The notes beneath the pieces were generated by a model. It saw only the letters and a program-made list of their open reading frames with translations. It made no database searches and was not told the DNA's origin. Shown here piece by piece: positions 2,720 to 64,000 of a stretch of DNA of 64,000 nucleotides. Position 1 is the stretch's first letter. Each line of letters begins with the position of its first letter. The position numbers and the translations under genes are program-made. The stretch is from Eledone cirrhosa (lineage: Eukaryota), in NCBI GenBank assembly GCA_964016885.1, contig OZ024740.1, positions 335,358,001 to 335,422,000 of the forward strand. The letters run 5' to 3'.

Positions 2720-4830
2720 TCAGTCCGGAGCCTTGTAGTTATGCAATAGGTGTTTGGCGACGTGTGGACAACGTGTGAAACATTCATTTCTCGTGTTTTG
2801 GCAATCACTATTGCGTAATCTCTTTAGAATAGTTATTCGTTTGTCAATACATAAGCCACACGTCGGATTTCCACTTGCGTATGGCTTGGACTTAGTGATG
2901 GCTTTCCATTGAATGGAGTAGTCTATACTTGAGTCCTTGAGGGACCATACGTGGCTCGCGACTTTCGTGGATGAACGTCTGTCCGGGTACCTGAAGGTAG
3001 CCTGGTGGTTCAGGAAACGTTCCTTGAATCGGCCCTCCGCCATGCCCACATAGGATTTGAGCTCCTGTGGTTCGTTTGGTCGGTTGGAAATGAGCACAGC
3101 TTCATAAATTACAGCTGGTGTGTTGCATTGCTGTTGAAGGGGGCAAGATTCAGGTTTACGGCAAGAGCACCCTGGTGGGGTGTTGCTCCTAGGGCTGCTG
3201 GTGATGTGGGCCTTCATGTTCTTAGCGCAGGAGTATCCTAGTTTAACTTTGTGTCGGTTAAAGATGGAGCGGTATTTATGACCTATGGGAAAGAGTCTAT
3301 CTGATAGAGGGCTAGAAATCTTTTTCCTACCTTGGTTTTAACGTTGAGTGAGAAAGGAGGAGAGAACCAGATAGTTTGTCTATTGTTGCGCTTACTTTTC
3401 TTAAAGGTGTTGTTGCTAGTGGGAGAGTAAGTGATGGGTTGTGAGAAGCCGCTGTTAGCCAACGCCGTGTTATAGTAGGGTGCCGCCCTGTCAAAGATAG
3501 CCTTATTAGAGGAGAGGTTTGAGATTCTAGTACTGATATTCTCAACGAAGTTTCTAAAAACAGTGGGAGGGTGGCATGAGTCCTCGTGAATGTAATTGAG
3601 TTTCTCGTTTGCTTATGGAAGTGTCTGTGGGTGTGTGTGCGAAGGTCTAAATTAATGTCTAAGAAATCTACGCTAGAGAGGTTGGTGGCCACTGTTATCC
3701 TAAGTCCTAACTCATTGAAGGTTGAAGCTAAGTCTTTTTTAAACCGATCGAGGTCGTCACCACCTTTATGGCTCGATAAAGTCAGTCGATCGTCGCGGTA
3801 TATTCCCGTGTGGAAGTCCGGGAATCTAACACGTAATATGTCTAAGATAAATAGGCTAACCAAGTCACATACGTCAGCACTGTCAAACGATCCCATGTAG
3901 ACGTCGAATAGACTTCTTTGCCCAGGCTACTCCGTCGTTGAAGATGAGGGTTTTCCGGCAGTGAGCGATGATTTCCCTGTCTAAACCATCGACGGTCGGT
4001 AGTATAAGTGGTAGCGAAGTCCAACGCTTTGTTTAACAGGGTCTCTGAGATCGACGGGTAAAAATCGACAATGTTAAACTGTGTGAACTTCGCGTTTTGG
4101 GATTTTAAGGAGTTAAACCACCTAATTACGGAGTCGCTGTTCTCCCACTGGGGCAGGTTGGACTTGGTCCTAATGGTCTTAACTATGTTTCTAAGTATGG
4201 CCTTACTGACTAGTTCCATATCTGTGCGTGCCGGGTTTATTAGTCTAGATGTGGGGTTAGAAGTAAAGTCTACCTTGTGATCTTTCAGGGTGAGGAACGC
4301 CTCCCGCTTAGCTAGAGATTGTAGCTTCTTATCTACCTTAAGGTCATCGGCAAGTTCCTTGGCTTCTGTATTAATGTCGTGGTAGGCCATAGGGTTAGCT
4401 TTCTTATATTTAGAAGTATTAGCGTTATGGGCCAGGTGGCGGAAAGTGGTGTTGTTGACTTCGTAAATGTTATTAGTTTTGTCGGAAAGAACGAAGGTGT
4501 TATTCGAAGACCTAAATTTCTTAATATCATTTCTGAGTTTCGTTTGAAAGGTGTTAGTGTGCTTGCGAAAAGAAATGTTAGCGACTAAGTCAAGAAGGTC
4601 CGTCTCGAAAGGAGCAAGTTCAGTTACCTTAGGAGGCTAGGCTCTCGATTTCAATTGAAGATGTTGTTGGTGCCTGTAATTATGCCGTCAAAAGCTAGGG
4701 CTCGCCATCTTAAGCGTCTGACGACATCTTCCGCTTTTTGTAAGATGAGCTTTTGGTAAACATGGTTTGAGGGAGTTGGAATGTTCTTCAGGGAGTAATC
4801 CAGTTCGTATAAATCCAAACTGACGTTGAT
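2720..4830 (-). pseudogene. Frameshifted PLE ORF: reverse transcriptase + C-terminal GIY-YIG endonuclease
   Basis: Motifs YSLKNIP..RRLRWRA, LKDHK..RLINPA, FNIVDFYPSI, MGSFDSADVCDLV, YRDD, VDFLDINLDL, CSC..CPL..C..AVIY..YVGM..FKERFLNH..CGLC..N..CPH, split over several frames. Possibly Nematis-like (inference). Confidence 0.92.
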
Positions 4831-5680
4831 GAGATGCAAAATTGTGTAGGACACGAGGATATAGAGAGCGCTCTCAGGGTAGTAAGCCAAACTCACACGT
4901 GGTGAAGAATCTGCTAAAAGCCAAACTTCTACGTAGTGAAGAGAATCTGCTGACCGGTGCTGGAGACGTAAATATATATTTATATACTTAAATGAATATA
5001 TATATGCATACACACATACATATATATATGCATATATCATATACATTTATATGTACATACATACATATGCATATATACTGTAAATGTATAAGTATATACA
5101 TTCATATCTATTTATATGGTGTGTATATGGAAAAGAAAGAGAAGGAGACTCCGTGTTGGAATATTTAGATTCTGTGTCTGAACAAACATACAGTGTACTC
5201 ATTCAATCTACATTCAATATTTAAATACTGGCGTGTTGTTAATATCTGTCATTTTCATTCTTTCTCACGCTCTTTCTTTCTCTATTGCACCCCACCCCCT
5301 CGCCCTTCTCTTTCTATATTTCCCAACCAGATATTACGTGTTGTTTTTACACCTGACATAATTGAATTAATAACAGCATGTCAGGAAATTATTTGATTAA
5401 ACAACAGCACTTATTTAATATGGAGTATGATAGAGAATTTAATATATTTCTTATTCTATTCACTTTCTTGAATCAGGGGAAAACTAAACTTAAATTTGTT
5501 CAGAAAAATACATAACTATTGGTGTTAAAATTGTAATAAAACAAAGGAATGGAAAATATGTATTTTAAACATATATGTTTTGTGTATACATTTTAAAAGT
5601 GTATTACGATGCAATCTGTTTATATAGTTGTATTGCACTGTAATCTAGATAGACACTGAAAATATTGTATTGATGACGCA

Positions 5681-6346: not shown

Positions 6347-6534
6347 ATGTGTATTGTATATGTATATATATGAATATATGTATATACATGTATATATATG
6401 TATATATGTATATATATTATATATACATATATATATATATATTGTTATACTTGGGGAGGGTCATAATGTTGTAATAATATTGTCAGAATTAATAACAGAA
6501 CACACTCACTGTCTACCAGAGATACCAGAGTGTC

Positions 6535-7046
6535 ATGTTCGTGGACGCTACCCTTGGAGGGAAATTAGCTAACCAGTGTAGAAAGGCCCTGAGAAAGACC
6601 CACTTAAAGATTAAGGTGATAGAAAAGTCCGGAACTACCATAAAATCCCTGATCAGCAAAACATACCCTTTTAAGAAAGCCCACTGTACTAATAGGAAAT
6701 ATATTATATGTAAAGTAAACCCCCAGATAAACTGTAAATCTAGAAACGCTGTCTATAGCATAAGATGTACAGAGGGTCTTGCAGAAACATTACAAAAACA
6801 TACATAGGCGAGACAGCTCGTAGCATAGGTGAAAGGATGGAACAACACTGGGGGGAACTAAAAGGACGAAAAAACTGTTCAGTACTATACGAACACGCCA
6901 CACAACATCATGACGGTAACATAGACAACATAGAAATTAAAATAATATCTAAACATAGAAATGACTCAGCAGATAGGCAAATCAGAGAGGCAAGTGAAAT
7001 TGAACTTAGAAGGCCAAAGCTAAATAGAAAAAAATTAATGGAATAA
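6535..7046 (+). pseudogene. PLE linker + GIY-YIG endonuclease fragment (one frameshift near 6775)
   Basis: FVDAT..KVIEKSG..C..C..CKSRNAVYSIRC / YIGETARSIGERMEQH..SVLYEH..RQIREA..LNRK. Confidence 0.88.
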
Positions 7047-7923: not shown

Positions 7924-7977
7924 ACTGTCTGATGAGGTCATATCCATTCAATGGCTATCATCGAAATATATAGCAGT
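7924..7977 (+). ncRNA. Type I hammerhead in a ~230-bp non-coding insert (7792-8022) between (TA)n tracts
   Basis: ACUGU-CUGAUGA-GGU..CCA-uucaa-UGG..AUC-GAAA-UAUA-UA-GCAGU. Helix I ACUGU/GCAGU, palindromic helix III AUAUAU, AUA site. Confidence 0.82.
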
Positions 7978-12555: not shown

Positions 12556-12619
12556 TATTTTATTATATATATTTCAAGGGTACCAAGACAACATTGGTAC
12601 GCTTTCATCAGATAAAATA
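12556..12619 (-). ncRNA. Type I hammerhead ribozyme
   Basis: UAUUUUAU-CUGAUGA-AAG.GUACCAA-uguuguc-UUGGUAC.CUU-GAAA-UAUAUA-UA-AUAAAAUA. 8-bp helix I. Confidence 0.85.
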
Positions 12620-45714: not shown

Positions 45715-45814
45715 ATTATTATTATTATTTCTTTAAGCACTTTGCATATTCTTTCATTTCTATCAGATTATTATATTGCAGCTCTGCCTCATGCAACGAG
45801 CACTGTCAATACAA

Positions 45815-45885
<71 letters not shown>
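45815..45885. repeat. (TAA)n microsatellite, target of the RLE LINEs
   Basis: Further (TAA)n tracts at ~49171-49220, 49539-49613 and 52446-52462 separate and end the elements. Confidence 0.95.
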
Positions 45886-45886
<1 letters not shown>

Positions 45887-48800
45887 CCCAAGGAGAGGGG
45901 CTACAGGAGACGGATGCATAACATCTGGAACGAGATTGGTTTATTTAAATTAGATGAACAAAAATTGGCCGGGCAGGCTTGGGTAATAAGAACTAATGGG
46001 TGGATAAGCGAGCTGGAACTGGAGGAACTGAGCAGAGAGAATGGCTTGGAGATGGCGGGTGTAGTATGCCAGACAAGCGAGCCGGCAGGAAATGAAGGTG
46101 AGGAGGTCCTGAGAACGGAGGAACCACCCGAAGCAGACAATGATCTGAATACTGAGATAAATAATACCTGGAACAGAGATACGGCCACTGAGGAGATGAA
46201 TGCTGACGGGCTAGGACAAGATTCGGTTGACATCCTAAATTTAGTGGTAGATGAGTTGAACAATGATAGTGGGAGACCTATGAACCTAAGATTTGTAGAC
46301 AGGAAAAAGTTAAAAGAAACAACAGCTAAGGTAAACAAAGTCATCCCATACCTTGAGGCGAGGAGTCTTCACCAGTGCAACAATATCCTCAAAGCAACAG
46401 CAAATACGGTGAGGAAACTACTTGGTATAAAAGCGAGAGGAAACAACAGACAAGAAAGAGCAGAGCCGTGGTGGAAGAAGCGACTGAGTGGGCAAATCGA
46501 GGAAATGAGAAATGACATAGGAAAGCTTGAGTCACTACTGAATGGGACACTAAAAAACATAGGCACTAAAAATAGACTGGAAATAAAATACAAAACTAGG
46601 AGTAAAAAGCTAAATATTATCATAGAGGAATTGAAGCAACGCATTGTAGCAAAGAGTGCCAAAATCAGGCGATACGAGAACAGAGTCAGTCAGTATAAAC
46701 AGAACCGCATGTTCGACAACAACCAGAAGATGCTGTTTGGACAGCTTGAGGGGAAAGAAAGAGGCAACGACTTGATCCCTGGGGCGGAACAAGCTAAAAC
46801 ATTCTGGAGAGGAATATGGGAGCAGGATGTTAGACACAATGCCCAGGCAGGGTGGATTGAGACAGTACAGAGGGAGATCGGTGAGCAGGCACAGCAACAG
46901 ACTGATTTGAGTATCACAGTTGAAACTCTTAAGGGGCAAGCCAAAAAACTAACCAACTGGAAATCACCAGGCCCAGATGGTGTGCAGGGGTATTGGATTA
47001 AACATTTAACATCCCTCCACCCGAAGCTGACGGCCATGTTCAATGACTGCTTGGTGTCGGGTGAGGTGCCAGAGTGGTTGACAAAAGGTACCACAGTTCT
47101 GATAATGAAAGACCGAATCAAGGGTAATGATGTTACCAACTATAGACCTATCACATGTCTGCCCGTAATGTGGAAACTGTTGACGAGCATTGTGTCTGAG
47201 GAAATCTACCATCACCTCCACACAAACAACTTGTTGCCGGACGAACAGAAAGGATGCCGAAAGAAGTCACGTGGTACAAAGGACCAGTTGCTTATTGATA
47301 AGATGGTAATGGGGAATTGCAGGAGGAGACACACTGATCTTGCCATGGGATGGATAGACTACAGAAAGGCATTTGACATGGTGCCTCATTCCTGGATCAC
47401 CAAAAGCCTGGAGATCTTCAGGGTGGCAGATAACATCAGACAGTTGCTGGGCAGGAGTATGGGGTCCTGGGAGACAGAGTTGACATCAACTGGAGTATCC
47501 TTGGGAAGCGTGAAGATCAAGAGAGGTATCTTCCAGGGAGATAGCCTGTCCCCTCTGTTGTTTGTCCTTGCCCTGATGCCCTTGACCATTATGCTGCGAA
47601 AAGTGAGAGCAGGATACAAGTTGGGAAGGGGAGAGCTTACCATCAATCACCTCCTCTTCATGGACGATCTTAAGCTCTTCGGGAAAAGTGAGAAGGAGTT
47701 GGATGTGCTTGTTGACACTGTCCGTATTTTCAGCAGTGATATATGTATGCAGTTTGGTATTGGTAAATGTGGAGTCATTGTGATGAGGAGGGGTAGGTTG
47801 AGCAGAAGTAACGGGATCCAGATACCAACAGGTGAGATGATAAAGGAAATTGACTCTGAGGAAGGATACAAGTATTTGGGCCTTCTGGAGGCTGATGGCA
47901 TAAAGAACAAAAAAATGAAGGAATTGTTAAGAACTGAATACATTCGGAGAGTAAGGAGCGTATTGAAGTCACATCTGAACAGCAGAAATGCCATAAGCGC
48001 AGTAAATTCCCGAGCTGTGTCTATTATTAGGTACAGTGCGGGAATTCTGAGATGGAATGTTGCTGAACAAAAAGAAATGGATAGGAAGACTAGGAAGCTA
48101 TTGACTATCTACAACATGTTCCACAAGAGGAGTGATGTCGATAGACTCTACCTAAGGAGATCTGAGGGTGGAAGAGGTCTTATCAGCATAGAGGACTGTG
48201 TTCAGATGGAGAAAAACAACCTATACAAATACGTGACCTATAGTAAGGAGCCAATGCTCAGAGCTGTACTGAAGGAGGGGACAGTAGGCCAGGGGATATC
48301 CAAGGAGGAAATAACATCAAGGAGGAAGAGCAGCCTTAAGGGAAAATCCCTTCATAGTACCTTCTTTGAGAAAACTGAATTTAGAGATCCACAGACATGG
48401 AACTGGTTGAGAAGAGGAGACCTCAAAAAGGCTACAGAAGGAATGCTAATGGCTGCGCAGGAGCAGGCCCTCAAAACGAAGTGGTTGAAGCACCATATCT
48501 ACAAGGAGGAGGCTAGCCCACTGTGCAGGATCTGTGGAGAGAGAGAGGAGACTGTGGCTCACATTGTGTCCGAGTGTAAACACCTAGCCCAGACCCACTA
48601 TAAGGGCTGGAGACACGATGTGATGGGCAGGGTGATCCACTGGCACCTGTGCAAAGTAAACAATCTACCACATTCTGAGAAATGGTATGAGCATAGGCCA
48701 GAGGCGGTGATGGAGAACAGTCAGGTGAAGGTGCTGTGGGATTTTAGGATATAGACGGACAAAAAACTGGAACACAATAGACCTGACCTGGTGGTTGTGG

Positions 48801-49170
48801 ACAAAGAAAAAAGATCGTGCCTGATTGTGGATGTGGCCTGCCCGTTCGACACGAGAGTGCAAGAGAAGGAGAGGGAGAAAATTAACCGATACCAGGACCT
48901 AAAGTGGGAGGTGAAAAGGATTTGGAACTGCCATGAAGTCAAAGTGATCCCGATTGTCATAGGCGCACTGGGGACTATCTCCAAAGGTTTCCAGGGATGG
49001 TTAAAGAAAATCGGCCCCTTCACGCTTTTTGGAACGCTTCAAAAGGCATGCTTGCTTGGAACGGCAAGAACCCTCCGATACGTCCTGAATATCTGAGGCT
49101 GCAGGTAATGGCTTGATATTCAATCCAACGGACTTTCCAGTTAACCAACATCAATGACTGAGATTCAAGG
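45886..49170 (+). mobile_element. R4/Dong-clade non-LTR retrotransposon (RT + restriction-like endonuclease), slightly 5'-truncated
   Basis: Single ORF, short 3' UTR and (TAA)n tail; inserted in (TAA)n as Dong elements do. Confidence 0.93.
45887..49096 (+). pseudogene. RT-CCHC-RLE polyprotein interrupted by a single in-frame TAG (48752-48754)
   Basis: RGYRRRM..EQKLAGQ; WKSPGPDG; NYRPITCL; QKGCR; DYRKAFD; GIFQGDSLSPLLF; LFMDDLKL; YKYLG; GGRGL; CRIC..ETVAHIVSEC; RHD; WDFRI*TDK..RPDLVVVD..VDVACP..KINRYQDL. ORFs 45776-48754 and 48791-49096 are in the same frame. Confidence 0.93.
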
Positions 49171-49182
49171 AATAACAATAAC

Positions 49183-49221
<39 letters not shown>

Positions 49222-49243
49222 TAACCGATAAAAATTAAATAAT

Positions 49244-49538
49244 AAAAATTAACCGATACCAGGACCTAAAGTGGGAGGTGAAAAGGATTTGGAACTGCCA
49301 TGAAGTCAAAGTGATCCCGATTGTCATAGGCGCACTGGGGACTATCTCCAAAAGTTTCCAGGGATGGTTAAAGAAAATCGGCCCCTTCACGCTTTTTGGA
49401 ACGCTTCAAAAGGCATGCTTGCTTGGAACAGCAAGGACCCTCCGATACGTCCTGAATATCTGAGGCTGCAGGTAGTGGCTTGATATCCAATCCAACGGAC
49501 TTTCCAGTTAACCAACATCAATGACTGAGATTCAAGGA
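49244..49538 (+). mobile_element. Heavily 5'-truncated sibling copy of the preceding R4/Dong element
   Basis: Matches ~48877-49170 with about 5 substitutions; has its own (TAA)n tail. Confidence 0.92.
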
Positions 49539-49546
49539 ATAACAAC

Positions 49547-49613
<67 letters not shown>

Positions 49614-52445
49614 TTAACAAACTATAAAGTAGGTGAACATGTTAAACAAACTAAACTTAGAAAATTGAAAAAAAAGTACAGTATAAGATCAACATGTGAC
49701 ATAGACATGCTGATAGAAACAATCAAGCAAAAAGTGTCGGCCAAAGCTGCTCGTATAAGGCGCTTTGAAAAACGATCTAGATTCTATACGGACAATAATA
49801 TGTTCAAAAACAACCAAAGAAACTTCTACAGAAAAATTGGTAAGTCAACAATAACTGCTAAATCAATACCACCCAAGGAGGAAGTGCAAGAATTCTGGGA
49901 AAAGATCTGGGCCGAAGAAAAAGTTCATAACATACATGCCCCATGGATAGACAGACAAATGAAAGAAACAGCTCACCTTGAAGAACAAACATGGGAAAAT
50001 ATAACAGTTGAACAGCTGCGCTTGGCTCTAAGAAAAACCAGCAAATGGAAATCCCCAGGAAAAGACAAAATACAAAACTTTTGGATAAATGCCTTCACAG
50101 AGTCTCATGAGCTGTTAGCCCAACTTTACAATGAAATAGTTAAGGAGCCAGAAAAAGATACCTTCATGGCTAGTTAACGGCATTACATTCCTGCTTCCGA
50201 AGAATGATGAGACAAACAATCCCAAAAATTACAGACCGATAACTTGCTTGACCACAATGTATAAAATGTTAACATCAGTCCTAACTGAATACACATATGA
50301 CCACCTGATAACAAATGACCTATTTCCCATTGAGCAGAAAGGGTGTAAACGAGGCTCATATGGCTGTAAGGATCAGCTTCTGGTTAACAAAATGATACTG
50401 GAAGATTGTCATAATAGACACAAAAATATATCGATTGCTTGGATAGATGATAAAAAAGCATTTGATAGTTTGCCACACAGTTGGATTGAAAAATGTTTAG
50501 AGATTTTCAAAATATCCCCCGTTGTCAGGAGGTTTTTGTCATTCAGTATGAAGACATGGAAAACGACACTCCTTTTGAATAGTGAAACAAAATCACTGGA
50601 AGCTGGAGAAGTTAATATTAATTGTGGAATTTTTCAGGGTGACTCTTTATCACCGCTTTTATTCTGCATCGCACTTATACCATTAAGTAAAATGCTCAAT
50701 GAAACAAAACATGGATATAAAGTCTATGACAAAACCATTAATCACCTGTTCTACATGGATGACCTGAAACTATTTGCAAAAAATGATGAGCAATTGCAAG
50801 GGCTATTATCCACTGTGAAGCAGTTCAGTGATGACATTAAAATGGAGTTTGGACTAGATAAATGCGCCAAAGCAACGTTCACCAGAGGAAAGCTGCTGAA
50901 GAGTTCAGACATTAATCTTGATCGGGGGAACGTGATAAGAGAACTTGATCAAGAAAAAACTTACAAATATCTAGGTGTTTGTGAAGGAGACGGAATCAAG
51001 CACTCGACAATGAGGGAAAGGAAAGGAAGGAATGTTACCGCAGAGTAAGAGCAATCTTAAGAACGGAATTGAATGCAAGGAATAGGATCGATGCCATAAA
51101 CACGCTTGCCATACCAGTAGTAACCTACAGTTACAATGTCATCAACTGGTCAAGCACAGAGATCCGTAGGCTCGATACAAAAATTCGAAAATTCTTAACC
51201 ATGCACAGAATGCATCATCCTAAGGCAGATATAGATAGAATATATCTCCCTAGGAAAGAAGGAGGACGTGGGTTAATCCAGTTAGACATTGCGTTGAAAA
51301 CTGCAACAATTGGATTATCTACATATCTAAGGGAATCACATGATTGGATGATCAAACTCGTTTTGAAACACGAAAGCATCAAAAGATCATATTCCATTAC
51401 AAAAGATGCACAAAGATACAGTAATGGACTACAAATTTCAGAAGTCCCATTTACTGCTGAAATGGAAAACACAGAAAAAGCAAAGCAGGTAAAAGTAACT
51501 GCAAAGAAAGAACTGCTACAGAAACTGGCTAAGAAATGGCAAGAAAAGCCTCTGTATGGAAAATACCCAGAGCGAGCTAACAATCCTGATGTTGACAAAA
51601 CTTTAACCCATCAGTGGTTGGCATCCTCTGGACTGAAATCGGAGACTGAAGGACTGATTATATCAGCACAAGATCAGTGTCTGCCAACAAAAAATTACCA
51701 AGCCAACATAATAAAAAATGGATGCAGCCCATTATGCCGTGTATGCAAAAAACAACCAGAGACCATTGACCATATAATTTCAATGTGCAGTCCTATAGCT
51801 CCAACCGAATACCTAAACAGGCATGACAGAGCTGCACAATACATACATTGGATAATGTGTAAGCATTTTTACCTGCCCCATCAAAAGAATTGGTGGGAGC
51901 ATCAACCACCTCCCATACTTGAAAAAGATCACATCTAAATCTTGTGGAACTTTAGCATCCAAACAGACCGAAAAATAGATGCAAATAGACCTGATATAAT
52001 ATTGAAGGACTTTAAAAAGAGGGTATGCCTGCTAATTGATATGTCCGTTCCAATAGACAAGAATGTATCTATAAAAACATTTGAAAAATTGAGCAGGTAT
52101 AAGGACCTGGAGATAGAAATTGGAAAAATGTGGAAATTGAGAACTAAAACAATACCAGTGGTTGTAGGCGCTCTGGGAATGATACCTAAGGGGTCTAGTG
52201 ATTACTTATCGCAGATACCAGGAAACCCGCGTATAGGAGAATTACAAAAGATTGTACTAATGGGAACTGCCCATATACTAAGGAAGATTCTGTCAATATA
52301 AGTACATCACAAGTCTAAACACTAAAGATGCATGTGTGAGTATGTATGTTCTTCCTTGAACATGACGGACCTTGTTGTCTCTTGAGGTCACTGGTTGTGA
52401 CTTGGTGATAACTCGTATGAACATAAAGCAAGATAAATGCAACTG
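49614..52445 (+). mobile_element. Second, distinct R4/Dong-clade LINE, 5'-truncated and decayed
   Basis: ORF pieces 49521-50177, 50248-51048, 51069-51938, 51942-52301: WKSPGKD, NYRPITCL, GIFQGDSLSPLLF, FYMDDLKL, CRVC..ETIDHIISMC, RHD, RPDIILKD, KLSRYKDL. Two frameshifts and one stop; (TAA)n tail. Confidence 0.92.
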
Positions 52446-54933: not shown

Positions 54934-57900
54934 CATACATACATGCATACATATGTACATATTGGGTTGTACTAAAAGGATCGGTAAATAAGATATATCA
55001 TGACATGTGAGATAGAATTACTTATTCTGCATGCAGCTCAGTGGTTGATGTTGCTGCTGCCTAACTGCAATTAGATTGTCTGATTGTAATTGAACATGAC
55101 TGTATAGTTGTATATATGTGATAGGTACACACACACATACCACGCACACATACATATATATATATACATGCATATATGTAACATATATATACATACATAT
55201 GTGTGTATGTATATGTTTGTGTAAGTATATATACATATATACATATATATATGTGTGTAAGTATGTATGTGCACATACATATTATGGGGCTCAAGTTGGG
55301 GTACGTTGGTGTACACTGTGCATGGTATAATAGTTAAGGTGTTATTCACACGAACATCCACATCTGGGTTCAATTGCTTGACTGTGTGGTATATTGAGTC
55401 CCTAAGCAATGCATTTCATTTCATGTTTTTCCAGTCCACTCCTCCGAAAATATGTACAAGATGCGTCGTGGAATTGACCTCACAATGGACTGTAGTCTTG
55501 TGGTGTGACTCGTTTACATCACATGGAATCAGGATTAATAAACCCAAGAAAGATTTTTTAAGTATGTTATATTTTGGAATGAGAATACTCACATTTATTA
55601 CTGACTAAGTGTCATAGCAAAGTATCGGAATAAAACACTCTAACTTTTATTTGAACGTGAGTATAAATGGCGATGAATGTAATTTTGGATATTTTATTAA
55701 GAATGAGATATTCTATTATTGGAAAGCGGAATTTAATTGTTTTAGTGACGAGGATGAAGATAAGGTTTCATAAATAGCAACTAATGTTGTCTTCGTTGTT
55801 TTATTCGATGTTCTAGATTCAACACGCCGATTCAACACGTCGTTTCCTTTTTAAAACAGTAGGTTATGATTTCAGAGATGCTATTTGGAGCAGAATGAGC
55901 TGGCGCCTTAAAGAATAACTTTCAAGACGCAGATACATTGTTTCAAAAGTCACAGAGATGACTTCATGTTAATATTTTACAGTATGAGTTAGCAGGACTA
56001 TGCCTGTTGCTCATTTCGATTGATGGAGACAAGTGCCATATGTCGGAAGATGAGGTGAAAGGTTTTTCTAGTTCTGGTGAGGAATAATTGGTGAAATTGT
56101 ATAGTATAAGGTTGATTATAGAGAAGAGGGACACATGGCAGATGGATGTCTCTGATGGGACAGTGATTAAGTCTAATAATTCAAGAAAGCAGGAACCTCG
56201 TGATAGTATTAGAACATACTGTTACAGATCTAGAGGGTTTTGCAGTTGATATTTTAACCTAAACTCAAGCATAATCACGTAGACCACTGATTAGAAACAT
56301 TACTGTCATGGCCATGTTTTTAGAGGAATCGGGGATTGTAGGGTCGATTTGAGGCAAATTTAACTGTTTTTTTTTTGTGTTTAAGTAACTACGTAGAAGC
56401 CCTTTCGTTGGGAGTGGGCTAAGCAAATGTGTGTTTAGTTGATATTTCTTGTAACAGCCAACGTTAAGATGTGTTACAAATTACACAATTAGTATATCGA
56501 TATATGACTCCCGTACGGATGTGTGGTAGTACAACAAATAGAAATAGCTGATAATGTGCTCACCTGGTAGAGTAAGTGATGCTTGTCGTATATCCAAATG
56601 TGATAATATGAAACATGAGAGAAAGACAATGCAATTGCAATACTATACTCACACATTTATCCACATGCAATTTCACACCAGATGTTCACTGTTTCACAGC
56701 CTACTACTCTAGAATGTGTATTAAACACGAAAACACGCTCAATAAACATATCTTTGATCAAGATTCGAGTTTGTCCCACTTTAAAGATATTGTTCCTATA
56801 TGTGGGTCAATAATGGCGGTATACGCATGACCATCCAAAATGAGGAGATGTGACCTATTTTATTTTCCAAGATTTATTAGCTCACATACAGGCCGATTCT
56901 TCTTTCTGCCTTTTTCTATCGCTACTCGAATAAATTATGCGCCGCCGAGATACTGATGATGACGATTATGGTAGCAATTTTAGTAAATTTAGTCGCATAA
57001 AGTTTCACAAGAAATATACTTTGCAGCTCGTTCCTCAACCACGTTAGAGGCTCACAGATTTTCAGACTAAACACAAAAGACATCAATCGCAACAAGCTGG
57101 AGCGACTGCAAAAAAGATAGTCAAAATAGATAGGAGAACATTGCCTATCTTGTAAATACTTGCATTCTCCCTGTACATGTATAACAATGCAGTTCAAATT
57201 GTAAATGTAGCTTCATTTATTAGGCATCAACATTTTTGTTCAACTTTCTTCATCACCTCTCTTATATAACATGAAAAAATCTACACAAACAAGCTTAGAT
57301 GCTTTCTTTAATGCCAGAATCTACATGAGCTTTGATCAGTTGATGTTTGTATGTAAGAGTCGATAAACTTAAACGGCTTTTAGCAGACGTTACATTCAGT
57401 CCATCTTCCCGCTTTAAGAATAAATTCTTCCGTTCTTGTATTAATGATGGATATGGGCGCTGTTTATATCCTTTCGAGAAGATACGCAGATATCTACTTT
57501 GGAGGAGCAAGAGGCATTGTAGTTGCGAGAAACACATAACAATTATGTGCCATTATGCTTATAATAATTTAGTATGGGAATATTTACAAAACAAACCAAT
57601 CAAATGGTTTCAATATTCTATTCTCTGACTCAGCTATAACATACATTAGATTAAGGATAACTGCTCCTAGATAGTGCTATCATTTCATACATGAATATAT
57701 AGACTGCATCCCGATCATTTGGTCTCTCCTCTTGGAAACATAAAAGCTGCCCATCTACTCCAACAACGCGACATCTGTAGCTATGGCATCTCTCTTCTAA
57801 TCTGTTGTATTTCACACACTAGATTCCTAAATACAATACATTCTCCAACCTTCCTCCTTCAAATATACATAGCTCTCTTCACATATATATATACATATCA

Positions 57901-57976
57901 TGAAACATATCTGCTGCAAAGGTCACGACACCTGAACTATTGTTTGTACAGTTGACCTGTTTGTAGTGGCTGGAGT

Positions 57977-58040
57977 ATACGTCGATGTGTGAAGATACGT
58001 CGATGTATGAAGATACGTCGATGTGTGAAGATACGTCGAT
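57977..58040. repeat. 18-bp minisatellite x3.5
   Basis: Unit ATACGTCGATGTGTGAAG. Confidence 0.9.
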
Positions 58041-58442
58041 AAATAGCTAAGCTGATCCTGATTTCAATTTCCGGATGCACTTCAACGAAATATTTTATTT
58101 TACGTCGCTCCAGCTTGTTCATTTGGAAAAAAAATAATTTGTACTTATAATTCGAAGGGCCAGCCTTGTTACGCATTGTGCCGTTCTGAATCTTCCTGAG
58201 AAATATGTTAAGGGTACACATGTCTGTGAAATTGTCAGCCTCTGTCACATTAATTTTACGAGCAGGTGCTTCTGTTTATTATAAAATAAGACTCCTCGTC
58301 ATCGAGCCCGACAGTGTTACAACAAATGTAGATGTGGTGCAGTATCACGTAAATTGAACAACATAAAATGGTTCAAGTAATTTTAGATGTATGTTATCAG
58401 CGTGTTTCAAAAGCTAGTAATAGTAGCAGCAGCAGCAGCAGG

Positions 58443-58512
<70 letters not shown>

Positions 58513-58723
58513 AAAGAGCAGAGGGTGATTGTTATTGTTGTTATTGTTATTGCTGTTGTTTAACATCAGGTTAAGCTTAATTAAACAGTTCTATGATGAG
58601 ATTCATTTTCATTCCAGCAATAAGAATACTGGGTTTTCCCTTTATACAGAGAATCCAGGAACACCGTATCGAAAATGGTAAGATGTAAATTAAAGGAGAT
58701 TATATAAATATAATTGCATATGT

Positions 58724-58985
58724 GAAGGCACGTGGCTTAGTGGCTAGTGCGTTGGATGCACAATCGAGAGGTTGCGAGTTCGATTCTCCTTGAGAAAGAC
58801 TCTTCATTTCCAGTTGCTCCAGTTTTTTCAGCTGTTGAAATAAGTTGAAACGTCCCTTTCCTTTGACAATGAAAGCGTGGAGTGGAGAAACTTGTATGCA
58901 CGGGCTACTGCTGATCTTCCACAAAATAACCTTGGTCGGATTTGTTCATTGGAGGGAAATTTTATGCAAGATCTATGGTCATTCT
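58724..58985 (+). mobile_element. tRNA-derived SINE (family B)
   Basis: A-box GTGGCTTAGTGG, B-box GAGTTCGATTC, then CCTTGAGAAAGACTCTT core; related to 1388-1568. Confidence 0.75.
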
Positions 58986-59057
58986 TTACAATGTGTATAT
59001 ATATATATATATATATACGATATTAATAAATGGAAACTATATTTATAAAACCATATT

Positions 59058-59122
59058 TATTTCATTATACATATTTCAAGGATACCAAGTTAAATTATGG
59101 TATGCCTTCATCAGACAAAATA
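59058..59122 (-). ncRNA. Type I hammerhead ribozyme
   Basis: Reverse complement of 59390-59454. Confidence 0.82.
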
Positions 59123-59389
59123 CAATATATATCAGTTTTACAAATAAGCATTGACGTACCCTTTCAAAATGCGACCATTACTTTTGGAGGACATCAGGAT
59201 AGTGGTTTGTTTATATTATTTTAGTAAGTATTAGTGTTAAGGACAATTACAAAAGACAATTACAATTGTCCTTAACACTAAGACTTACTAAAATAATACA
59301 AACAAACCACTATCCTGATGTCCTCCAAAAGTAATGGTCGCATTTTGAAAGGGTACGTCAATGCTTATTTGTAAAAGTGATATATATTG

Positions 59390-59454
59390 TATTTTGTCTG
59401 ATGAAGGCATACCATAATTTAACTTGGTATCCTTGAAATATGTATAATGAAATA
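59390..59454 (+). ncRNA. Type I hammerhead ribozyme
   Basis: UAUUUUGU-CUGAUGA-AGG.AUACCA-uaauuuaacu-UGGUAU.CUU-GAAA-UAUGUA-UA-AUGAAAUA. Confidence 0.82.
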
Positions 59455-59725
59455 AATATGGTTTTATAAATATAGTTTCCATTTATTAATATCGTATATC
59501 TACTCCAAATACTTGTCGAGTGCTTTATATCAGTTATAAAAATATTTACTTGCTGTATCCAAACAATTTAAATAGAACTTTTGCATATATATATATATAT
59601 ATTCCAATAATACATAGTTAGATTTTCAGCAGCGGACTGTTGACCACGGTTTTCCCACTCCGAAGGCATTTTACTCGACATTTGATCGACATATGTTAGA
59701 CATTTTCTACGTTTGGATTTCATAC

Positions 59726-59780
<55 letters not shown>

Positions 59781-59877
59781 TATATATCCACAATTAAATG
59801 AAGGGTTGTCATGTCTGAGAGACATTGTGATTGTTCAATATGTTCATTTTATATATATATATGTCAATCTATTTCTA

Positions 59878-60038
59878 GTTGCGGACGCCATGCTTTCCAG
59901 TATAGTTACGTCCCTTTACGGTCTGAGTTCAAATCCCGCCGTGGTTAACTTTGCCTTTCATCCTTACGGGGTCGATAAAATATAGTACCAGTAATGTACT
60001 GGATAATTGCTGGCCTTGTGCCAAAAGTAGAAACAATT
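59878..60038 (+). mobile_element. SINE family A
   Basis: GAGTTCAAATCCCGCC..GCCTTTCATCCTTACGGGGTCGATAAAA..AAAAGTAGAAACAATT. Confidence 0.87.
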
Positions 60039-60257
60039 ATATATATATATATTAGAATGTGTATTAAATATGTTCATACATTAACAGAGTGAGAACGCAA
60101 TAATTGTGTGTAGGATGTATATGTAAATATATATATATATAAATTGAAACAAAATGAAAACGAAATTTCATTTCTCACTCTTAGTATGGCACTTACTTAA
60201 ATGTAAGTATGCATGTATACGTACATACATATATGTATACAGACGTACAGTAGCATG

Positions 60258-60303
<46 letters not shown>

Positions 60304-60457
60304 TACATATGCATACAGGTACACATACATATATGCACGTATCAGTTTAGCGGCGCTAACGTCGCTTTGTTCGTTTGTAAACAAACTGAACAGCCTGAAT
60401 TTATGCCATACGGTGTTAAGGCAACCACGTCACCTTTTTGTTCAACACTGACACAGG

Positions 60458-60502
60458 AACGATGTACTAGTTTCAAGCTTGTTAGCTATCATCAGCACCG
60501 TT
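60458..60502 (-). ncRNA. Type I hammerhead ribozyme, unit 1
   Basis: AACGGUG-CUGAUGA-U-AGCU-aaca-AGCU-U-GAAA-CUAG-UA-CAUCGUU. Confidence 0.9.
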
Positions 60503-60739
60503 TACCCATCTGCCAGATAGTTGAACGTTCGAAAGTATATACTTTCCTTATGAAAATTAACGGCTGAGCAGCCTAATTTGCATATTGAGTGAGTTAAATC
60601 GGTTAGGCATACCGAAAACGATAAATTGAAACAAAATGAAAACGAAATTTCATTTCTCACTCTTAGTATGGCACTTACTTAAATGTAAGTATGCATGTAT
60701 ACGTACATACATATATGTATACAGACGTACAGTAGCATG

Positions 60740-60787
<48 letters not shown>

Positions 60788-60941
60788 TACATATGCATAC
60801 AGGTACACATACATATATGCACGTATCAGTTTAGCGGCGCTAACGTCGCTTTGTTCGTTTGTAAACAAACTGAACAGCCTGAATTTATGCCATACGGTGT
60901 TAAGGCAACCACGTCACCTTTTTGTTCAACACTGACACAGG

Positions 60942-60986
60942 AACGATGTACTAGTTTCAAGCTTGTTAGCTATCATCAGCACCGTT
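60942..60986 (-). ncRNA. Type I hammerhead ribozyme, unit 2
   Basis: Identical motif to unit 1. Confidence 0.9.
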
Positions 60987-61215
60987 TACCCATCTGCCAG
61001 ATAGTTGAACGTTCGAAAGTATATACTTTCCTTATGAAAATTAACGGCTGAGCAGCCTAATTTGCATATTGAGTGAGTTAAATCGGTTAGGCATACCGAA
61101 AACGATAAATTGAAACAAAATGAAAACGAAATTTCATTTCTCACTCTTAGTATGGCACTTACTTAAATGTAAGTATGCATGTATACGTACATACATATAT
61201 GTATACAGTAGCATG

Positions 61216-61261
<46 letters not shown>

Positions 61262-61415
61262 TACATATGCATACAGGTACACATACATATATGCACGTAT
61301 CAGTTTAGCGGCGCTAACGTCGCTTTGTTCGTTTGTAAACAAACTGAACAGCCTGAATTTATGCCATACGGTGTTAAGGCAACCACGTCACCTTTTTGTT
61401 CAACACTGACACAGG

Positions 61416-61460
61416 AACGATGTACTAGTTTCAAGCTTGTTAGCTATCATCAGCACCGTT
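61416..61460 (-). ncRNA. Type I hammerhead ribozyme, unit 3
   Basis: Identical motif to unit 1. Confidence 0.9.
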
Positions 61461-61697
61461 TACCCATCTGCCAGATAGTTGAACGTTCGAAAGTATATAC
61501 TTTCCTTATGAAAATTAACGGCTGAGCAGCCTAATTTGCATATTGAGTGAGTTAAATCGGTTAGGCATACCGAAAACGATAAATTGAAACAAAATGAAAA
61601 CGAAATTTCATTTCTCACTCTTAGTATGGCACTTACTTAAATGTAAGTATGCATGTATACGTACATACATATATGTATACAGACGTACAGTAGCATG

Positions 61698-61747
<50 letters not shown>

Positions 61748-61972
61748 TACATATGCATACAGGTACACATACATATATGCACGTATCAGTTATGCACATA
61801 CATATATGCACGTATCAGTTTAGCGGCGCTAACGTCGCTTTGTTCGTTTGTAAACAAACTGAACAGCCTGAATTTATGCCATACGGTGTTAAGGCAACCA
61901 CGTCACCTCAGCCGTTAATTTTCATAAGGAAAGTATATACTTTCGAACGTTCAACTATCTGGCAGATGGGTA

Positions 61973-62017
61973 AACGGTGCTGATGATAGCTAACAAGCTT
62001 GAAACTAGTACATCGTT
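61973..62017 (+). ncRNA. Type I hammerhead ribozyme, inverted copy
   Basis: AACGGTG CTGATGA T AGCT AACA AGCT T GAAA CTAG TA CATCGTT read directly on the + strand; predicted cut after 62010. Confidence 0.9.
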
Positions 62018-62171
62018 CCTGTGTCAGTGTTGAACAAAAAGGTGACGTGGTTGCCTTAACACCGTATGGCATAAATTCAGGCTGTTCAGTTTGTTTACAA
62101 ACGAACAAAGCGACGTTAGCGCCGCTAAACTGATACGTGCATATATGTATGTGTACCTGTATGCATATGTA

Positions 62172-62217
<46 letters not shown>

Positions 62218-62287
62218 CATGCTACTGTACGTCTGTATACATATATGTATGTACGTATACATGCATACTTATATATATATATATATA

Positions 62288-62426
62288 TATAAATGAGAAA
62301 ACACAGGTAAGCATTAAGAGAAGGATTTTATCCAGGTATTTACGACCGTTTCATTGGTAAGTGCAACCTTATATTGCTATACTGCAAATAGCAGCCACTC
62401 AATTATTATTGTTGTTCACAGTCCAA

Positions 62427-62429
<3 letters not shown>
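62288..62429 (-). repeat. Duplicated 3'-terminal segment of the right-hand PLE
   Basis: Direct repeat of 62765-62908 with about 5 substitutions. Confidence 0.88.
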
Positions 62430-62471
<42 letters not shown>

Positions 62472-62608
62472 GCGAGAGAGAAAGAGTCCCGGTTACAATC
62501 AGGTCTAAACACAGTAAGTAAGGTACTCAGTACATAATGTTTATTATAGAAATGGCTTCTATTGAATGAAAGTTCTAGTGCTGTAGAACTCATTTCTATA
62601 TTAAACAT

Positions 62609-64000
<1,392 letters not shown>

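Follow-up and report, generated by a model that had tools for sequence, protein, structure and literature searches.

The tandem array at positions 60139 to 62271 of the window, the 64,000-nt stretch of Eledone cirrhosa DNA analysed here, is probably one young insertion of a non-coding, non-LTR retrozyme, whose two arms a Penelope-like element (PLE) would have made by copying one circular RNA monomer from both DNA ends. It also seems rather likely that such arrays at large are genomic records of double-primed rolling-circle retrotransposition, in which a ribozyme-made circle is copied from two fixed sites, one per strand, and the insertion is born as a multi-unit palindrome. The original prediction, that a PLE reverse transcriptase (RT) copies a retrozyme whose type I hammerheads are of the dimer type, is favoured by the fixed ends and the two-armed layout found genome-wide. 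Below, family A denotes the 480-base repeat of this locus, monomer position 1 is the first base after the hammerhead cut, and genome-wide counts refer to the 3.0-Gb genome.

The tail arm (60139..61908, minus strand) comprises 3.7 head-to-tail units, with its inner end at monomer position 30 and its outer end at 328, and the short, inverted arm (61907..62271, plus strand) runs from monomer 381 through the cut site to 263; the two meet head-to-head with a 2-nt overlap (CT) at 61907..61908. A PLE-type 'tail' (60139..60197, minus strand, monomer 270–328) is present at the tail-arm end only. In the window sequence the units start at 60139, 60621, 61105 and 61579, with lengths of 482, 484 and 474 nt plus a 330-nt partial unit, and what sets them apart is the (TA)n tract, the loss of 8 bp in unit 3 and, in unit 4, a tandemly duplicated stretch of 29 bp (61792..61820). 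The original prediction had counted three full units, one partial and one inverted, alike save for TA length, the same deletion and a small duplication, and in these respects our reading agrees; what changes is the status of the inverted unit, which it listed as a separate copy and which is the second arm of one insertion, in a layout that recurs genome-wide. Reading frames in the array are of microsatellite type or short only, GC content is 35%, and there is no LTR layout. The insertion is flanked by (TA)n target sequence on the left (60127..60138) and right (62272..62291), the latter itself the end of an older Hydra-type PLE, of which a 3′ piece with a GIY-YIG frame (63481–63870) lies on the minus strand at 62291–63918. 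The ~140-nt end of that element is present twice (62291 and 62769), and the retrozyme was inserted in the adjoining TA. On the other side the array is adjoined by a high-copy SINE (59880–60040), which we take to resemble an octopod type.

Four type I hammerhead motifs lie in the array. Three are on the minus strand of the tail arm (60458..60502, 60942..60986 and 61416..61460, with CUGAUGA cores at 60495, 60979 and 61453) and have predicted cuts after 60465, 60949 and 61423, the sites named in the original prediction; the single motif of the short arm (61973..62017, plus strand, core at 61980) has its predicted cut after 62010. The cut spacing delimits two minus-strand monomers, of 484 nt (60465..60948, 35% GC) and 474 nt (60949..61422, with the 8-bp deletion near 61204), as had been foreseen. 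The former has a strong predicted fold (–166.7 kcal/mol, z –8.6), owed in part to a long internal TA/CA hairpin. With its three motifs the left arm could release both monomers, whereas the right arm, having only one, could not release any. A transcript would have to begin within the unit or enter from the flank, in which case read-in would produce a 365-bp hairpin.

The four motifs are identical, with the core elements CUGANGA, GAAA and UH, a 7-bp helix I (one G.U), a 4-bp helix II, an ACUAGU palindrome and a GUA triplet. A complete core with these helices and palindrome had been predicted and is seen in all four; the lengths stand, but that description omitted a U.U mismatch at 10.1–11.1, the base of helix II, where the sister family A2 retains a G10.1–C11.1 pair. 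No stable helix III forms within the monomer, and the ACUAGU duplex in trans is computed at –4.8 kcal/mol; in the isolated motif, folding gives the core-side pairs of helix I probabilities of only 0.19–0.30. Short palindromic helices III of this kind are predicted to act as dimers in minimal PLE hammerheads (PMC4209133), and the axolotl HHR_Amex2, which has a U.U at the same place, shows weak cleavage on its own that improves in the dimer (PMC7229834). Among the retrozyme dimers of Xenopus described in the preprint of Li, Clavereau and Pollet 2026 (bioRxiv 10.64898/2026.07.22.740005), 8 of 9 tested showed no cleavage. An Rfam scan of 56000–64000, the check that the original prediction had proposed, returned no hammerhead among 79 matches at E<=1; its miRNA matches are TA-hairpin noise under the gathering scores.

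The exact 40-nt motif has 10,122 copies in the genome and its reversed control none, so that the motif is not due to chance; related hammerhead motifs, among them those of older A subfamilies and of A2, number 11,285 genome-wide, and family A with its relatives accounts for over 21,000. Within a set of 15 hand-picked motif variants, which mostly reflect a single A/A2 split and hence few independent events, two-sided changes fall in 7 of 12 pairs and amount to 29 cells, compared to 11.6 in shuffled sets (none of 500 shuffles reaches 29) and at most 9 in slid controls. The core is invariant across the variants except at N7. Together, these compensatory changes and the near-invariant core lend support to a hammerhead that is probably maintained by selection.

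Family A insertions share a fixed outer architecture across the genome. Exact tail-end junctions of (TA) with monomer position 328 occur 897 times and short-end junctions with 263, 266 or 269 occur 848 times (controls: 0 and 1), a ratio of tail to short ends of ~1:1. Each of six initial arrays consists of a minus and a plus arm head-to-head, with ends at 328 and 260–269. A sample of 60 of the 897 tail-end loci, the first ones listed for contig C1, contains 49 that are two-armed and lie head-to-head in a (TA)n target; by strict extension the outer end of the short arm falls at monomer 260–270 in 42 of these 49 and the other arm ends at 328, while of the remaining seven, one is cut at the edge of the sampled segment, five end near 269 and one at 254 (BLAST). 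With eight loci excluded for unreliable end calls, 46 of 47 two-arm loci are flanked by TA left and right, the left TA being part of the search pattern and the right not. Arms measure anything from less than one unit to 16 units, and the position of the central joint is variable, anywhere in the unit, with an overlap of 0–6 nt in 38 of 55 joints, a longer one in 3 and inserted bases in 14. The search for further arrays with variable start points, proposed originally, therefore found many other arrays, but with fixed outer ends (328 and 260–270) and only the central joint variable.

The 11 single-arm loci comprise three with a second arm copied from the end of a neighbouring element and others that run into TA or flank. 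The odd second arms of L068, L076, L088 and L041 were considered as RNA chimeras and proved to be copies of the ends of neighbouring elements, inverted in L068, L076 and L088 relative to the flanking element. In L068 and L076 a few unit bases precede the copied end, which suggests a switch from RNA to target DNA via TA microhomology. Palindromic, TA-rich sequence is prone to assembly artefacts, and a collapsed tandem or a long-read fold-back could in principle produce such a structure; as hundreds of loci share this asymmetric layout while differing in flanks, arm lengths and locus-specific haplotypes, this reading is almost certainly wrong.

PLEs are recognised by an inverted copy, a tail confined to one end and insertion into (TA)n (PMC8557442), and the ORF-bearing Hydra-type and Neptune-like PLEs of this genome have the same short-end and tail-end layout. 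In vitro, the anole PLE protein acts on both strands, cutting as well as extending them, and two adjacent internal RNA start sites bound its tail (PMC11167929). By analogy, we infer that positions 328 and 263–269 are two PLE RT start sites, one per strand, and the tail at 60139..60197 would then be situated between them.

Copies of family A are young, with a divergence of 0.6% among 39 loci; older A subfamilies are 76–87% identical to it. The sister family A2 has a unit of 466–470 nt that aligns collinearly with that of A all the way round, 307 of 442 aligned bases (69%) being identical, and has a similar fold; both A2 and the older A subfamilies close at the same unit point as A. A conserved ATGCAAAT was considered as a possible promoter octamer, but it pairs within a stem in both the A and A2 folds. 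One A2 insertion (L110–L129, C1:5738326-5752444) reaches 31 units on one side of its joint and has a single motif in the opposite arm, and an A2 satellite of over 45 kb (L142–L146, C1:95641000-95687000) has a higher-order period of six units (2,817 bp), which had been a candidate for a full PLE, and still ends in a two-unit inverted arm with a tail. The unit also occurs in data from 15 organisms, for which horizontal transfer was considered and set aside: relatives or carry-over suffice, three of the 15 also carry the neighbouring SINE at far higher depth, and two have one low-depth contig.

Might the unit be merely the pseudo-LTR (pLTR) of an ORF-bearing PLE, whose 5′-truncated inverted insertions later grew at their sites through unequal exchange? 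The genome does contain many short inverted insertions that consist of a pLTR alone and bear a tail (e.g. 59010–59590), Xenopus retrozymes are homologous to pLTRs (bioRxiv 10.64898/2026.07.22.740005), and local expansion does occur, as in the >45-kb A2 array. However, an arm crosses the 328/329 point in 38 of the 60 loci, and all 146 wraps lead back into the unit, with no continuation into an ORF or other non-unit sequence at any of the 38. Since the wraps always return and A2 closes at the same point, the unit is very probably not just a pLTR, a possibility that the original prediction had itself raised. In addition, both inverted arms are multi-unit with a private divergence of 0.08%, and a profile search with the tail region gave only A and A2 copies among the matches listed. 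We consider the pLTR account quite improbable.

The identity of the template can be approached from variation within and between arms. Of 36 testable loci, 19 have an identical microsatellite haplotype in both arms, against a mean of 2.9 and a maximum of 10 in 5000 permutations; with a tolerance of one TA, the arms match at 26 of 36 (permutation 6.4, maximum 13). The other 17 have no exact between-arm match, including the window locus, where a TA16 tract in one arm faces TA15–18 in the other. The 36 loci comprise 21 haplotypes, and private substitutions number only 50 in 65,520 bases (0.08%). Other variants mark whole loci: 105G>T is present in all nine covering pieces of L092, in both arms, and every covering unit of both arms carries 404A>G with del388 (L060), 216A>G (L047) or 251A>G (L055). 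Shared haplotypes and locus-wide variants together indicate that a single monomer sequence was amplified at each insertion; later conversion between arms may have contributed, but the copies are very young. Passage through the cut site is exact in 216 of 225 cases, with three substitutions and six indels from two loci, five of the six being one deletion common to all units of the L080 short arm. One monomer and seamless continuity across the cut are the pattern that a closed circle gives.

Tandem arms would also arise if the enzyme jumped again and again between the ends of a cut linear monomer, no ligated circle being involved. The inner ends of arms cluster just past the cut, with 20 of 109 at positions 1–40 compared to 8.6 expected (P about 6e-4), in a count for which five loci were corrected by hand and joints within the TA hairpin are under-called. 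This hints, if weakly, that cut linear RNA served as template in some cases. Yet only 3 of the 109 inner ends lie within 5 nt of the cut, and template jumps, as R2 biochemistry leads one to expect, should add or lose bases at junctions that here are nearly all exact. Jumping is therefore highly improbable. Deletions of at least 3 nt are not enriched at the cut (6 loci, as in the control window). L080 (C1:184445917-184447820) lacks the 7 nt ending at the cut site at all five short-arm cut junctions, so that a ribozyme-dead unit was still amplified; as a general trimming scar this deletion was rejected, there being no excess over the control window. Long A-run expansions near monomer position ~25 in single outermost units of L033 and L087 resemble RT homopolymer stutter.

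A second possibility retains the same element and PLE double priming, but takes as template a long multimer transcribed from a source array and left uncut, with the hammerhead playing only an incidental part in copying. Uncut RNA is the main substrate of the anole PLE in vitro, where hammerhead cleavage is not needed (PMC11167929), and seamless junctions without trimming scars fit this account as well. At L035 the first two units of one arm match those of the other in tract length, in register, and an array at C3:338.4 Mb is mosaic, with a deletion in only some units; both patterns fit a multimer template or later exchange. In contrast, the 21 haplotypes and the variants found in every unit of both arms would need a one-monomer bottleneck followed by amplification, arms of up to 16 units would require RNA left uncut across 15 hammerheads, arrays could only shrink, and the hammerhead is conserved with compensatory changes. 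We regard an uncut multimer as unlikely, and continue with the circular monomer.

On the circular reading, a tandem arm would be transcribed and adjacent hammerheads would pair via ACUAGU to excise monomers of ~480 nt, which a host ligase would close into circles. A PLE protein acting in trans, as PLE biochemistry suggests, would cut both strands of a (TA)n target, and RT would begin at two internal RNA sites, at 328 on one strand and at about 263–269 on the other. Each copy would extend over the range seen in the arms, from less than one unit up to 16, and the two copies would finally be joined head-to-head, presumably by repair, at a variable point with few overlapping bases.

Candidates for the helper were sought among the PLEs of the genome, whose clade names rest on motif comparison with PMC8557442 and on general background; a Pfam search yielded just a weak RVT_1 match, on one of four PLE pieces. 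No pLTR homologous to the unit was seen among the PLE ends in the sampled loci, and an ORF with RT and GIY-YIG between pLTRs is absent from the array loci examined; a low-copy autonomous master element for family A may exist. A young Neptune-like family (L147–L171) is a weak candidate. Its protein copies are 99–100% identical, with open frames of over 1,200 aa, and it has a hammerhead-like motif of its own and two tail lengths (45 or 59 nt). Tail length and age match those of family A (0.4% divergence among its best 25 matches, a biased set, versus 0.6%), with no sequence likeness to the unit seen. The Hydra-type families B, E and J were rejected as helpers for their tails of ~90 nt or longer with a different motif, and the neighbouring family C for its greater age (about 95% identity among copies) and longer tail.

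Several further elements were recorded. An inverted Hydra-type pLTR pair of family B (59010–59590) carries hammerheads at 59114 (minus) and 59398 (plus) in which helix II is long, and only its right arm has a tail, of ~90 nt; L091 contains a relative with an ORF (745-aa frame). A further pair of hammerheads, arranged head-to-head with a short end and a tail end, lies at 12611 (minus) and 13182 (plus), and a lone hammerhead at 7929 (plus) is downstream of a Neptune-like relic (6496–6807). A broken Hydra-type PLE at 2720–5046 (minus), with RT and endonuclease pieces in several frames, has relatives at 80–90% in L047, L056 and L088. Two adjoining plus-strand non-LTR retrotransposons (45737–49588 and 49512–52301) encode RT with a C-terminal nuclease-like region, with a 1005-aa frame and a duplicated 3′ end of 367 bp. 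Unrelated hammerhead families occur at L070:3521-3978, L062:3780, L092:6752, L097:6656-6691 and L071:3957-4672, among them one 457-nt tandem, likely a retrozyme, and one preceded by repeated ATGCAAAT-like motifs. The abundant Hydra-type family J (L064, L100 and many other loci) has an end with GAAAC-hairpin-GUC and no CUGANGA seen upstream, possibly a degenerate or variant ribozyme.

If correct, the circular reading would supply evidence that retrozyme circles serve as the template of transposition, a step from circle to genome that stands as a hypothesis in PMC7229834 and bioRxiv 10.64898/2026.07.22.740005. It would also explain the inverted-plus-tail structure of PLEs, the origin of whose tandem and inverted structures Craig et al. 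list as unresolved (PMC8557442), and would provide a route from an RNA circle to satellite DNA, insofar as the >45-kb A2 array keeps its inverted arm and tail. Some 900 near-identical insertions with two fixed priming sites and locus haplotypes constitute a large natural data set, and the 480-nt unit a minimal substrate for testing a circular versus a linear template and the rule of one site per strand. Each insertion, as a long inverted repeat, could be a source of dsRNA.

The class of the array has been described before: both non-LTR retrozymes and the proposal that ties them to PLEs are already in print. In published literature, with subscription papers, Repbase/Dfam and preprint supplements outside the scope of the search, we found no description of family A and no two-armed retrozyme insertions with paired fixed start sites, so that the suggestion of an undescribed family may hold for family A itself, but not for its class (PMC7229834; bioRxiv 10.64898/2026.07.22.740005). 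With the metazoan non-LTR retrozymes of PMC7229834, which lack LTR, PBS and PPT, it has in common a short tandem repeat that is non-coding and low in GC, a type I hammerhead in every unit and the lack of an LTR; the locus has three consecutive motifs at 474/484-nt spacing, arrays reach 16 units per arm, and the 897 tail-end junctions attest to dispersal. The A/A2 unit of 466–484 nt differs from the ~170–400-nt RNAs reported there, as does the two-arm layout with two fixed starts, the word 'inverted' being absent from the main text of that paper, in which Cervera and de la Pena 2020 proposed circles as RT templates for tandem cDNA and PLEs as candidate helpers.

With the EN+ PLEs Neptune, Hydra and Poseidon (PMC8557442, PMC11167929), family A shares a partial tandem with an inverted 5′-truncated copy, a tail at one end, (TA)n targeting, a hammerhead upstream of the tail and, putatively, two internal RT start sites; it differs in having no ORF, in a unit that closes on itself and in its U-rich tail of 59–65 nt, compared to 30–40 bp and AC-rich. 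Minimal PLE hammerheads (PMC4209133) likewise have a palindromic helix III and dual motifs on opposite strands 100–700 bp apart, whereas family A has a 7-bp helix I, a 4-bp helix II and multi-unit arrays. Chlamys PLEs such as MRC1 are also non-autonomous PLE derivatives with multicopy head-to-tail insertions, but most have no canonical hammerhead and resemble their autonomous partners at the 3′ end (PMC8557442). Finally, Li, Clavereau and Pollet (bioRxiv 10.64898/2026.07.22.740005) propose retrozymes as non-autonomous PLE derivatives, linking those of Xenopus to pLTRs by homology, whereas the link here is made by the insertion signature; and where their tandems grow by local amplification, family A arrays appear to be born multi-unit.
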